NCBI GenBank assembly: GCA_050178385.1
Contig: JBFXGD010000012.1
Span: 1 to 43,218 of the forward strand
Length of the DNA: 43,218 bases
Source of the DNA: Calditrichaceae bacterium
GTDB taxonomy: Bacteria > Calditrichota > Calditrichia > Calditrichales > JBFXGD01
Reading direction: 5' to 3'
Made by a program: the position numbers. Positions 6,001 to 9,000 of the stretch are shown here, piece by piece (position 1 is the stretch's first letter; each line of letters starts with the position of its first letter).

Positions 6001-9000
6001 GCATCAGCATGCTCCGCGCCCGATGAATTCTTCCTTTGTTCTGGATAAGCTGGTCAACAGGACGGGCTGGGAGCCGCATGATATCAATTCCGGGTTGATG
6101 CTCTATAAATCTAAAATTGAAGAAGAATATGGTAGATCCTAAAAAAGCGCTGATAATAGTTCCCACATATAATGAAATTGAAAATGTCGAGTCACTTGTT
6201 AACGCGATTTATAAGTCACAATCCGACATCAACATTTTATTTGTGGACGATAATTCTCCGGATGGGACCGCGGAATTAATAAATAAACTCAGGAAAGACC
6301 GGGATACGATATTTTTGCTTCAGCGTCCAGGGAAACTGGGGTTGGGGAGCGCGTATACAGCCGGATTCAAATATGCGTTGGAAAACGGATATGAATACAT
6401 ATTTGAAATGGATGCGGATTTTTCTCACGACCCTAAGGAAATACCGCGTTTTTTAGAACAAATTGAGAACTATGATCTCGTTTTAGGTTCACGGTATATC
6501 AAAGGAGTCAATGTAGTAAACTGGCCTTTGAGCAGATTGCTCCTAAGCTATTTTGCTAATATATATACACGATTCTCAACCGGCCTGCCGGTACGGGATT
6601 CCACCGGCGGGTTTAAATGCTTTCGCCGGGAAGTACTAAGTTCAATAGGCCTGGACGAAATTAAATCCAATGGCTATGCGTTTCAGATTGAGCTAAATTT
6701 TAAGACCTGGAAAAAGGGTTTCCGAATTAAGGAAATTCCTATTATTTTTGTAGATCGTGTTTACGGCGAGTCCAAATTGTCCTCAAAAATCATGTGGGAG
6801 GCGATGTTTTTGGTCTGGAAATTAAGATTGAGCAGTCTGTTTGGAAAACTTTAAAGGAATATATGGCACTAAGCGCGTTAAAATTTGTTCTGGAATTTGA
6901 AAAGCCGGTTGTCGAGCTGGAGAGAAAAATTCAGGAGATGCGCGAATACGCGGCTTCAACCGGAATTGAATTGAAGGATGATATAAAGAGACTGGAAAAA
7001 AAAGCGAAACAGCTGCGCAAGGAAATATATGCTAACATGACCCGCTGGCAGAGAGTGCAGCTGGCAAGGCATCCCATGCGTCCATTCACCCTGGATTATC
7101 TTGAAAGATTAACTTCTTATTTTGATGAATTGCACGGTGACCGTTTTTTTGCGGATGATACCGCCATTGTTTCCGGTTTTGCAAAAATTGACGATTTTTC
7201 TGTTGTAATTATAGGACATCAGAAAGGGCGTGACACAAAATCCAACTTATACCGGAACTTTGGTATGCCGAATCCCGAAGGATATCGCAAAGCCATGCGG
7301 GTAATGAATCTCGGGGCAAAGTTTAAGAAGCCGATTATTACTTTTATTGATACACCGGGCGCGTTCCCTGGAATTGGAGCTGAAGAAAGAGGCCAGGCTG
7401 AAGCCATAGCGCATAATCTTTTCCAAATGTCGCACCTGCCTGTTCCGATCATCAATGTGATTATTGGAGAAGGCGCCTCCGGAGGCGCATTAGGCATAGG
7501 TGTAGGAGATCGTATCCTGATGATGGAGAATTCCTGGTATTCGGTGATCAGTCCGGAAGGATGCGCCGCAATTCTGTGGCGTGACGCGGCAAAGGCTCCG
7601 GAAGCAGCCGAGGCGATGAAAGTGACCGCTCCTGATCTTTTGTCATTAAATATTATCGATGAAATAGTAAAAGAACCCGAAGGCGGAGCTCATCATGACT
7701 ATGATATGGCCGCTTCTCTTTTGAAGAAATCGATAATTAAACATCTGGGCGAACTCATGAAAATTCCGACAGAGGAACTGATAGAACAGCGGATAGAAAA
7801 ATTCTCCAAAATGGGAGCCTGGAAGGAATGATCGAAAACAGCAGCCAGCTGCGGGTTCGTTATGCTGAAACCGATCAGATGAAATTCGTACATCACTCTA
7901 ACTATATTGTTTGGTTTGAATATGGACGAACCGAATTGCTTAAAGCATACGGGTTTTCATATGCAGGGCTTGAAAAAGAAGGGTATTTGATGCCGGTGCT
8001 GGAAGTTAATGCAAAGTATCTGAAACCCGCAAAATACGATGATCTGATAACCATAAAGACGACGATGCCTTTTGCGCCTAAAGCCAGGATCGGATTTGAA
8101 TATCAGGTTTTTAATGAAGCTAATGAACTTTTATGCGAAGGATCATCCCTCCACAGCTTCATGAATACCGGTGAGCGTGCGATTAAGCCGCCAAAAAAGT
8201 TCTTGTTAAAAATGAAAAATTATTTTGAAGGATGAAAAATGCTGGATAAGGAGTTATTGGATATTTTAGCCTGCCCCAAATGCAAGGGTGATCTGGAATA
8301 TAAACCGGATGAAAAACAGTTGATTTGTAATGAATGTCGTTTGATTTACAGAATTGAAGATGACATTCCGATTATGTTGATCGATGAAGCTGAGGAATTT
8401 TGAGATTAGTAAATAAGTTCTTTTTTATTAATTTTTCATTTTTTCGGCCGAATAACAGAGTTAACTCTGATTTGCCAAAATTGCCTTGACAATCTAAGGC
8501 TTCAGGTTTAAATTTAAAATAATTCAAAAAAGGTACGCGGAGATGCGCCTATAAGCAGTTTGTTAAAGGAAATTTAGAATAGAAAGATTTTGATCCAGTA
8601 GTAGATGGATGCATCTGCCTATACCTTTAACAAGTTGCTTATTTTTTATTTCAAGCCGGTTAAATGGAATCTTTCAGGTAGATTAACCATTTAACCGGCT
8701 TTTTTTATGGAGGAAACAAAATGAGAAAATTTATAACCCTATCCCTGATGATTTTGGGACTGTTATCAACGAGCGACATTGTATTCGCTCAGGGCGAAGC
8801 CGCAGTTCCGTTTCTCCAGATTAATCCCGGCGCGCGTAACGGAGGACTGGGTGAGGCCGGTGTCGCGCTCGCGGAGGATGCGACGGCCGTTTATTGGAAT
8901 CCGGCCGGACTCGCGTTCCAGTATGATAATCCCGAAGTGGATACCAAGGGCGAGATTTCACTGATGCACGCCAAATGGCTTCCGCAGTTTAATTTTTCCG

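Follow-up and report, generated by a model that had tools for sequence, protein, structure and literature searches.

A conserved structured RNA leader before porV in Calditrichota and porU in Ignavibacteria-type genomes: a candidate transcription attenuator

Transcription attenuators that are built from three helices (an anti-antiterminator, an antiterminator and a terminator) include the pyr and trp leaders of Bacillus subtilis, which are controlled by PyrR and TRAP, respectively, and the expression platforms of transcriptional riboswitches. At phage lambda PR'-tR', transcription ends in a short '6S' RNA unless Q acts as antiterminator, and put and EAR are cis-acting antitermination RNAs. Concerning type IX secretion, PorX/PorY and the ECF sigma factor SigP exert control in Porphyromonas gingivalis, and an ECF-type promoter lies before porU in Flavobacterium psychrophilum, according to the available parts of PMC9723704, which cite PMC4800418. 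Control of type IX secretion at the RNA level was not found in the literature searched, in which the control described acts on initiation (PorX/PorY-SigP and ECF-type promoters, in the same parts of PMC9723704); no paper was found on a leader of porV or porU.

The window, a stretch of 43,218 nt from a Calditrichaceae genome, contains a structured element upstream of the gene at 8721, and the features of this locus are presented in Table 1. The product of the gene is, based on its profile matches, PorV, the outer-membrane shuttle protein of type IX secretion. The element covers 8547-8706 on the plus strand and consists of a hairpin (H1), a terminator hairpin (T) and a U tract, which ends 2 nt 5' of the porV GGAGG. 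The earlier note had placed it at 8548-8707 with a first hairpin of 18 bp; its layout of two hairpins and a U tract stands, whereas the limits are moved by one position and H1 has 19 unbroken pairs and a tip of 54 nt. The reality of the structure is confirmed by folding of 8520-8730 on the plus strand (-64.8 kcal/mol, z -6.4), which none of 200 shuffled sequences equalled. T was not listed in a simple terminator scan of the region, and our guess is that a bulge in its stem is the cause. An AUG at 8543 opens an ORF of three codons in the window, which is absent in the congener.

Table 1. Features of the porV leader and gene, in window coordinates
Feature	Position	Strand	Description and basis
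Sigma70-type promoter	8486-8514	+	-35 TTGACA 8486-8491, spacer 17 nt, -10 TAAATT 8509-8514; scores 10/12
Transcription start	~8521	+	predicted from the promoter
Purine motif GGAG/GAGG	8539-8542	+	few bases 5' of H1; visible in three alignments of relatives
H1 5' strand (region 1)	8547-8569	+	near-invariant GCNUAU...UUUGUUAAAGG; paired bases 8551-8569; fold and invariant columns
H1 variable apical domain	8570-8612	+	sequence not kept; core-to-core spacing 40-69 nt among relatives
X, distal 3' segment of H1 apical domain	8613-8620	+	AUCUGCCU; complementary to T loop
H1 3' strand (region 2)	8624-8642	+	CCUUUAACAA...; pairs with 8551-8569; A/G and C/U swaps tolerated, keeping G-U wobble pairs
T, terminator hairpin	8654-8700	+	GC-rich base GCCGG/CCGGC; fold
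Y, T apex, pairs with X	8676-8683	+	AGGUAGAU
U tract	8700-8706	+	7 U, directly 3' of T
porV Shine-Dalgarno sequence GGAGG	8709-8713	+	sequence and fold
porV	8721-9812	+	ATG at 8721; NF033710, 273.1 bits vs curated equivalog cut-off 250; Pfam PF19572

The element is found once in its own genome, as had been claimed, and no second site was found there. The absence of a known family is also borne out: with a limit of E<=10, Rfam offers at best microRNA and sRNA models with no relation to the element, all of which stay well short of their thresholds, and at the gathering score six related loci gave no match for the element (the sole match is a tRNA elsewhere in locus L212). A T-box hit, taken as a proxy for a specifier loop and T-box sequence, was not found in Rfam at E<=10. 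A strict core regular expression matched 65 of the 83 leaders and the others have variant 3' cores, so an alignment and a covariance model (R1) were used. From the alignment of all groups, RNAalifold retrieved no more than 11 pairs in the core and 9 in the terminator; the model carries only these 20 pairs because the lower stem of H1 is out of register between groups. R1 detects one sense-strand copy per genome in 84 of 86 Calditrichota genomes, from all eight families, which replaces the figure of 48 of 86 given before; the two genomes without the element also lack a porV orthologue. The full element is present at 82 of the 83 porV loci which have upstream DNA. Folds of 82 relatives predict the T hairpin in every case, and all 82 full leaders have the hairpin followed by a CGG-U-tract. 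At least five U are found in the 9 nt past the stem in 82/82 leaders and at least six in 71/82, and all of them have an SD-like motif in the stretch from T to the ATG. At the loci of a pattern scan, porV starts 13-31 nt downstream in 45 of 80.

The compensatory changes reported for the element are upheld on MAFFT alignments which were fitted to no structure. In clade I (47 sequences), 79.3% of the cells of H1 and T are paired vs 32-52% with slid partners, and in clade II (35 sequences) 78.9% vs 36-45%; the structure strings stem from members of the sets themselves (L019, L069) and so have an advantage over the slid controls. Changes on both sides are seen in 18 of the 40 H1 and T pairs of clade I. 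In clade II, the GGAG/GAGG purine motif belongs to a basal helix, GGGUGC:GCACCC, whose pairs were counted. G-U cells outnumber A-C cells in H1 (96:26), T (71:12) and the X:Y pairing described below (83:22), about 4:1 overall, so the selected molecule is RNA of the plus strand. The two strands of H1 are unequally kept: the mean column entropy of the 5' vs the 3' strand is 0.49 vs 0.99 bit in clade I and 0.46 vs 0.89 bit in clade II, which makes the 5' strand twice as conserved, while the arms of T are alike. The 5' strand may thus carry an extra constraint; the asymmetry has other possible causes, as the 5' strand is G/U-rich, which lets its partner vary by wobble pairing, and the 3' strand aligns worse.

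A promoter of the type TTGAC(A/T)/TTGATT-17-TA(T/A)ATT, with at least 9 of 12 positions, is found in 53/82 Calditrichota leaders vs 3/82 control windows. Since this conserved promoter lies 5' of H1 and T lies just before the ATG, porV must be transcribed through T. On this arrangement, T sits inside a dedicated porV transcription unit, downstream of the unit's own predicted promoter.

The earlier note had named the missing antiterminator pairing as a gap, and the comparative evidence fills it with a covarying pairing between the apex of T and the 3' strand of H1. In the window, X pairs with Y over 8 bp (-10.8 kcal/mol); the pairing is short here and a 5-nt insertion parts X from the H1 core. 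Taken sequence by sequence, the clade I duplexes of the H1 3' region with the T apex run to 10-14 unbroken bp. Cognate pairs in this clade have a mean of -15.1 kcal/mol vs -11.5 kcal/mol for non-cognate pairs, and 0/5000 permutations are as good, a count which overstates the significance, as do the other shuffle counts, because relatives are not independent. Against shuffled partners, the clade I pairing has a z of -3.1, that of families f6-f8 only -1.3. On the unfitted alignment of 47 relatives, 76.7% of the X:Y cells pair vs 32-49% with slid partners, and covariation is 0.263 vs 0.05-0.115; one pair occurs as AU 22, GC 10 and GU 9. The alternative pairing of clade II is 63.9% paired vs 34-52% when slid, with a covariation of 0.275 vs 0.065-0.144. 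Column 155 of this clade, in the H1 3' strand, covaries with the H1 5' strand (GC 16, AU 11) and also with the terminator loop (CG 14, UA 7). As read from the alignment, this three-way covariation is what is expected of two helices that exclude each other.

The partner site of the T apex shifts among lineages along the H1 3' strand, to its base or its core. In the window's clade, the alternative pairing shares no more than the top 4-6 bp with H1, and X is otherwise apical; X:Y may cross H1 as a pseudoknot there and, instead of switching, could act as a fixed contact between the loops. When Y is blocked in clade I, the mean energy of the T hairpin changes from -20.9 to -12.6 kcal/mol, and the lower stem of T could still be able to terminate. 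The alternative pairing is weak or indistinct in part of f7 and in one Ignavibacteria subtype.

The same element with the same type of promoter is found in 27 of 151 sampled class genomes of Ignavibacteria type. In a separate sample of 151 genomes, drawn from the whole phylum to which carrier G087 (Ignavibacteria type) belongs, the model detects it in only eight, seven of which recur in the class sample. Like the Calditrichota leaders, these have the core UUGUUAAAGG ... CCUUUAAC and a type IX gene downstream, and their terminator base (CCGAAUG ... CAUUCGG with the U tract) is identical to that of Calditrichota clade II. One covariance model detects both sets, and on these shared features we assign them to the same RNA family. 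A promoter of the TTGACA-17-TATATT type, with at least 9/12 positions, is present in 22/27 leaders vs 3/27 controls; the Bacteroidota-type promoter TAnnTTTG (5/27 vs 2/27 controls) was considered and the former is preferred. The earlier statement that the same gene always lies downstream holds within Calditrichota, where it is porV, but not in Ignavibacteria-type genomes, in which porU is directly downstream: 24 of the 28 model hits are followed by a type IX gene (porU 23, porV 1). In four of the five genomes checked, porV lies about 4.1-4.3 kb beyond porU. In the window's own genome, porU is found at another place and no leader precedes it.

Several sub-architectures are seen among the Ignavibacteria-type leaders. 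A conserved alternative helix that takes up part of T is seen in types A and B, built from other sequences than in Calditrichota. In type A, bases which are paired within H1 take part in it. Examples are a 12-bp pairing between the H1 3' core and the 5' arm and loop of T, and UGAGAC:GUCUCA at one locus. The permutation statistic covers only 18 parsed leaders (cognate mean -10.3 vs -8.4; 8/5000 permutations as good) and leaves out 14 which were parsed as a single hairpin, many of them wrongly because the outer pairs of the minimum free energy structure spanned both hairpins. Four leaders, judged by eye, have no separate T and their U tract directly follows a GC-rich H1 base; the three-helix scheme therefore cannot be universal.

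The earlier note had read the element as a cis-acting transcription-attenuation leader, a reading supported by the third pairing, the promoter and the linkage to porV/porU. We consider it probable, if by no great degree, that the element serves the porV mRNA as a cis-acting terminator/antiterminator leader. We infer termination and read-through, as well as the way the switch turns and an effector, as follows. Transcription would begin at the leader's own promoter and, by default, H1 would fold, T would fold behind it and polymerase would halt at the U tract, giving a leader RNA of about 185 nt without porV. For read-through, part of the H1 3' strand would pair with the top of T (apex and upper arm), and the full T would form too late. 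The competing segment would be X and the top of the core in the window's clade, and the basal H1 3' strand and linker in clade II. In some Ignavibacteria-type leaders, the 5' arm and loop of T are an outright repeat of the H1 5' core, which would give a classic four-region attenuator (1:2 / 2:3 / 3:4). A macromolecule (protein or RNA) may recognise the invariant H1 5' strand and either capture it before H1 closes or clamp H1 shut.

The wider reading is more speculative and in our view rather doubtful: an ancient type IX checkpoint in which a trans-acting factor (protein or RNA) would read the emerging H1 5' strand, pick terminator or antiterminator and so couple production of the PorV/PorU module for cargo attachment to some state of the envelope, in a unit that would predate the split between Calditrichota and Ignavibacteria.

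Other readings fit part of the same evidence. The perfect 19-bp duplex of H1, the location of the conserved bases in helices, the topological compatibility of X:Y in clade I with the lower stems of H1 and T, and the presumed abundance of PorV as an outer-membrane protein would all suit a static structured 5' UTR, in which one fixed fold serves the stability or processing of the porV mRNA (for example through a nuclease barrier or RNase III cleavage of the long H1 duplex), the terminator is leaky by design and there is no switch. This is unlikely, though the least so of the alternatives, because the pairing in clade II and Ignavibacteria type A takes H1-paired bases and the helices cannot coexist; also, the pairing site has moved between lineages with the T complementarity retained, and the full GC-based stem with a tract of 7-9 U in 82/82 leaders is superfluous for a mere stabiliser. 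Concerning the space behind T, a median of 29 nt separates the CGG at the base of the stem from the ATG and contains only the SD-like motif, which leaves no room for a separate porV/porU promoter. This, the fixed place before porV/porU (84/86 genomes and 24/28 hits) and the lack of a conserved single-stranded seed (invariant bases are paired and loops vary) make it improbable that the element is an independent small RNA gene, whose trans-acting RNA of about 185 nt would have porV transcribed by incidental read-through, even though a promoter of its own, the strong terminator, the single copy and the conservation in two phyla would suit such a gene. In other systems, a terminated leader can also serve as an sRNA, as the available part of PMC7547250 indicates, and a small-RNA role and attenuation do not exclude each other.

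A small-molecule riboswitch, with H1 and its internal loops as a metabolite or ion aptamer and T as the expression platform, has a comparably low probability. The leader architecture, with a terminator and a competing helix, agrees with it, and as no known class matches, it would be a new one. The invariant positions, however, are in Watson-Crick helices and not in junctions or bulges, no multi-helix junction and no conserved unpaired junction or pocket nucleotides are kept among relatives, the apical domain varies in length (40-69 nt) and sequence, and the controlled genes hint at no metabolite. Given that the conserved bases belong to helices and that the tip varies, a small molecule looks less likely as effector than a macromolecule. 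Least probable by far is that there is no single RNA element, but the terminator (T) of an upstream accA-thioesterase-trm112 operon beside an H1 that is a DNA operator repeat, or a mobile-element remnant. The simple scan listed no strong terminator between the end of trm112 at 8403 and the element, and folding is just as good for the minus strand (z -7.6, with an internal loop in H1 at the plus-strand G-U positions), as any inverted repeat does. The G-U excess of about 4:1 is, however, present in all three helices, the X:Y covariation ties H1 to T, the element is single-copy, and a conserved promoter separates H1 from the upstream gene. The earlier note had counted trm112 upstream in 16 of 24 loci; it is found in only 34/83 here, and in 0/45 in families f4 and f6-f8. 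Its alternative of a trm112 terminator and a separate hairpin is weakened, as the promoter lies between the upstream gene and H1, and the upstream gene varies while porV/porU is constant, and on these comparisons the split reading appears largely refuted.

Some narrower candidates were also rejected. A DNA operator, cruciform or MITE is rejected on the G-U:A-C asymmetry and the single copy. No small ORF or start codon for a leader peptide is conserved in register across relatives, as judged by eye. Sequestration of the Shine-Dalgarno sequence or a thermometer was set aside with GGAGG unpaired or weakly paired in the predicted fold, and a -10-like pause element in GCNUAU with its last position not a conserved T (by eye).

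The leader would add a further class to the cis-regulatory RNAs; it is placed before genes which attach secreted cargo to the cell surface and is carried by practically all Calditrichota genomes and by part of those of Ignavibacteria type. If the wider reading is true, no RNA-level regulator of type IX secretion would have been known before it, and its effector would be of an undescribed kind. The unusually conserved H1 5' strand offers a handle on the effector. A unit of about 230 bp with three covarying helices and, among natural variants, a shifted antiterminator site could serve as a test system, and model R1 can be used in annotation to mark the true start of the porV/porU transcription unit in two phyla.

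Compared with the three-helix attenuators, the leader likewise lies between promoter and gene with its terminator just before the ribosome site, and in clade II and Ignavibacteria type A one strand is common to the upstream helix and the helix that invades the terminator; covariation stands behind both alternatives. It differs from them in having no sequence or Rfam relationship and in its upstream helix, a very long hairpin with a variable tip; the invading segment differs in place by lineage and may form a pseudoknot with H1 in the window's clade. Lambda PR'-tR' resembles it in the constitutive-looking promoter, the terminated leader of about 190 nt (predicted in the present case) and genes that are on only with read-through. 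In the leader, however, no Q-binding element or sigma-dependent pause site was identified, H1 carries a -10-like TAU(A/C)(A/G) without a conserved final T (by eye), and the lambda and put/EAR systems are not known to depend on a covarying terminator-invading helix as the leader would. With the control in Bacteroidia, as far as the available parts of the source describe it, the leader shares the pathway, partly the same gene (porU) and the existence of dedicated regulation; there, control is exerted on initiation via a sigma factor, whereas the leader combines a housekeeping-looking sigma70 promoter with predicted RNA control after initiation.

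The 317-nt gap between trm112 and porV houses, in this order on the plus strand, a promoter-like site, a GGAG motif, the first hairpin (H1), the terminator hairpin (T), a U tract and a GGAGG motif; coordinates are listed in the table below. The fold of 8520-8730 (+) reaches -64.8 kcal/mol (z -6.4), and none of 200 shuffles is as good. The minus strand of the leader region folds about equally well (z -7.6), as inverted repeats would. The GCCUAUA at the 5' base of H1 (8547-8553) is repeated within the apical domain (8617-8623); the second copy is a 5-nt insertion relative to the other leaders of clade I (the window's clade) and is found only in the window's genus (G000, the window's genome, and G038). 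The genes around the leader are accA, a YbgC-type thioesterase gene, trm112, porV, and genes for a T9SS-dependent M6-like inactive metalloprotease (NF052323, 611 bits vs a cut-off of 600) and a 1047-aa TolB/PD40 peptidase-like protein that matches peptidase-MA and the TolB/PD40 propeller. The run of porV and the latter two genes contains no porU. Between the end of porV (9812) and the start of the M6-like gene (9939) there is a terminator-like hairpin (11 pairs, T-rich tail), which may uncouple porV in part from the cassette genes downstream.

Features of the porV leader and its surroundings in the window
Feature	Position	Strand	Remarks
trm112	8239-8403		upstream of porV
Promoter-like site	8486-8514	+	TTGACA-17-TAAATT
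GGAG motif	8539-8542	+	
Hairpin H1	8551-8569 with 8624-8642	+	19 uninterrupted pairs, 54-nt tip
Hairpin T	8654-8700	+	
U tract	8700-8706	+	seven U
GGAGG	8709-8713	+	
porV	8721-9812	+	ATG at 8721; NF033710, 273 bits vs cut-off 250
Terminator-like hairpin	9824-9849		11 pairs
Two genes after porV	9939-16041		M6-like inactivated metalloprotease, then 1047-aa protein

Both hairpins covary. In A2, a MAFFT alignment of 47 clade-I leaders which was not fitted to any structure, 79.3% of the H1 and T cells are paired vs 32-52% with partners slid, and both sides have changed in 18 of the 40 pairs. The 35 leaders of clade II (alignment A3) give 78.9% vs 36-45%. The ratio of G-U to A-C cells is 96:26 in H1 and 71:12 in T, an excess that is expected only under selection on the plus-strand RNA. 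The two arms of T are alike in conservation, and the 5' strand of H1 is about twice as conserved as its 3' strand (0.49 vs 0.99 bit in A2, 0.46 vs 0.89 in A3). Nearly all one-sided changes in H1 are A/G or C/U, lie on the 3' strand and keep wobble pairs. This asymmetry is owed in part to the G/U-rich 5' strand and to poorer alignment of the 3' strand.

Upstream of the leaders, TTGAC(A/T) or TTGATT, exactly 17 nt and TA(T/A)ATT follow one another. At least 9 of the 12 promoter positions match in 53 of 82 Calditrichota leaders vs 3 of 82 control windows, and in three quarters of the scoring leaders 36-56 nt separate the end of the -10 box from the core (the conserved H1 stem sequence). Of 83 loci, only 34 have trm112 as the upstream gene; among the 45 loci of families f4 and f6-f8 there is none. 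The leader is thus predicted to be its own transcription unit. That T serves merely as the terminator of an upstream operon was rejected, because a promoter lies in between and trm112 is not a constant neighbour; porV must therefore be transcribed through T.

A porV orthologue is present in 84 of the 86 Calditrichota genomes, the remaining two having paralogue-level matches only. In the upstream DNA of all 84, H1, T, the U tract and an SD-like motif are all found in 82 loci; the exceptions are a contig-edge locus (L088) and L033 (genome G018, oriented about 1400-1520). The latter retains H1 and the 5' arm of T; from there a deletion has taken the 3' half of T together with the U tract, SD and start codon, and an in-frame ATG within the T arm now runs into the PorV signal peptide. 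The MAG is 81% complete: this is either a fault of its assembly or a natural variant that lacks the terminator. G018 also has a second PorV-like gene. Built on 65 leaders, the covariance model R1 hits 84 of 86 genomes (53 of 53 high-quality ones), each once and on the sense strand, many of the 86 matching by construction as they gave seed sequences; the two misses (G048 and G069) lack a porV orthologue. The earlier note had counted 48 of 86 because its model was narrower; its single copy in the window's genome is borne out. In families f6-f8 the element has diverged, and its core reads UUGUUAAGG in place of UUGUUAAAGG. The porU of the window's genome (NF033707, 818 bits) lies on another contig (C1:59535-62810, -), unlinked to porV, and no leader copy is found there; in Calditrichota the leader has accompanied porV, not porU.

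Scanning one genome per species for the exact pattern yielded 95 stretches, and 80 of them were examined. Calditrichota-type leaders account for 45, with porV starting 13-31 nt past the match. Ten others, in records titled Ignavibacteria, Ignavibacteriales or Ignavibacteriae or in single MAGs labelled Chlorobiaceae, Bacteroidota or 'uncultured bacterium', have the same architecture with an ORF next. Seven of these ORFs were scanned, and each, though truncated at the end of its locus, matches the PorU sortase model over the model's N-terminal part (121-146 bits) as well as Propeptide_C25; in four of five such genomes checked porV follows 4.1-4.3 kb further on, on the same strand. The other 25 loci, clearly unrelated taxa included, look like chance (about 16 matches expected by our own arithmetic). 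At L158 (record titled Calditrichaceae, oriented 171-302), an H1-like core hairpin matching the pattern precedes a different structure with no PorV or PorU match after it; either chance or a diverged second copy may account for it. In samples of 151 genomes each, taken from the phylum and from the class of one carrier (G087), R1 detects the element in 8 and 27, respectively, with one copy per positive genome. Downstream of the 28 distinct loci are porU (23), porV (1), a contig edge (2) or neither gene (2). A TTGACA-17-TATATT promoter matches at least 9 of 12 positions in 22 of 27 Ignavibacteria-type leaders vs 3 of 27 controls.

The T apical loop is complementary to part of the H1 3' strand, which gives a third helix. 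In clade I its partner is the distal 3' segment of the H1 apical domain, into the top of the core, with duplexes of 10-14 contiguous bp down to -26 kcal/mol; in the window, 8613-8620 pairs with 8676-8683 (8 bp, -10.8 kcal/mol). Cognate clade-I duplexes average -15.1 vs -11.5 kcal/mol for non-cognate ones (0 of 5000 permutations as good), with z -3.1 against shuffled loops. In A2, 76.7% of the cells of the third helix's 14 pairs are paired vs 32-49% slid, and the covariation score is 0.263 vs 0.05-0.115 (one position is AU 22, GC 10, GU 9). In clade II the H1 basal 3' strand (CACCCA or CAUCCA), with the linker, is instead the partner of the loop (UGGGUG or UGGAUG); 63.9% of the cells are paired vs 34-52% slid, and covariation is 0.275 vs 0.065-0.144. 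One column of this 3' strand covaries both with the T loop and with the H1 5' strand (GC 16, AU 11), as expected for helices that would be mutually exclusive. Support is weaker in part of f7, and the z-score of f6-f8 is only -1.3.

The Ignavibacteria-type variants were compared by eye. The T base CCGAAUG ... CAUUCGG is identical in these leaders and in clade II. In some, ten bases of the H1 5' core are repeated in the T 5' arm and loop, and the H1 3' core can pair with the original or with the repeat (12 bp each). Others have a T loop that is matched by bases immediately 5' of the 3' core, e.g. AGACCUUU with AAAGGUCU; one subtype has no clear T-loop complementarity. Four leaders (L216, L218, L221, L222) have no separate T, and the U tract directly follows the long, GC-rich basal extension of H1, so that H1 itself would be the terminator.

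The best-supported reading is a putative cis-acting terminator/antiterminator leader; the earlier note had proposed a cis-acting transcription-attenuation leader. The anatomy, the promoter, the plus strand, three covarying helices and the linkage to porV or porU in two phyla are shown. T would terminate transcription, the alternative helix would lower termination, and some factor would set the balance between them. Against this reading counts that T with its loop blocked keeps -12.6 of -20.9 kcal/mol, and that for the window's clade a static pseudoknot could account for the third helix. For the attenuation leader, a macromolecular effector that would read the H1 5' strand fits, because of the H1 strand asymmetry, the long variable tip and the single-hairpin variants; the tip might leave some time until H1 closes. 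With its invariant bases in helices and its tip variable, the leader is a poor fit for a small-molecule aptamer.

A full-text literature search found no RNA leader of porU or porV. The main text of the Caldithrix abyssi genome paper names no riboswitches other than those for cobalamin, TPP and Moco (PMC5317091), and in Flavobacterium psychrophilum porU is among the genes behind an ECF-type promoter (PMC9723704, main article). The core-repeat Ignavibacteria-type leaders have the textbook four-region attenuator layout. The element probably resembles known attenuators in its working, yet it stands outside every described family.
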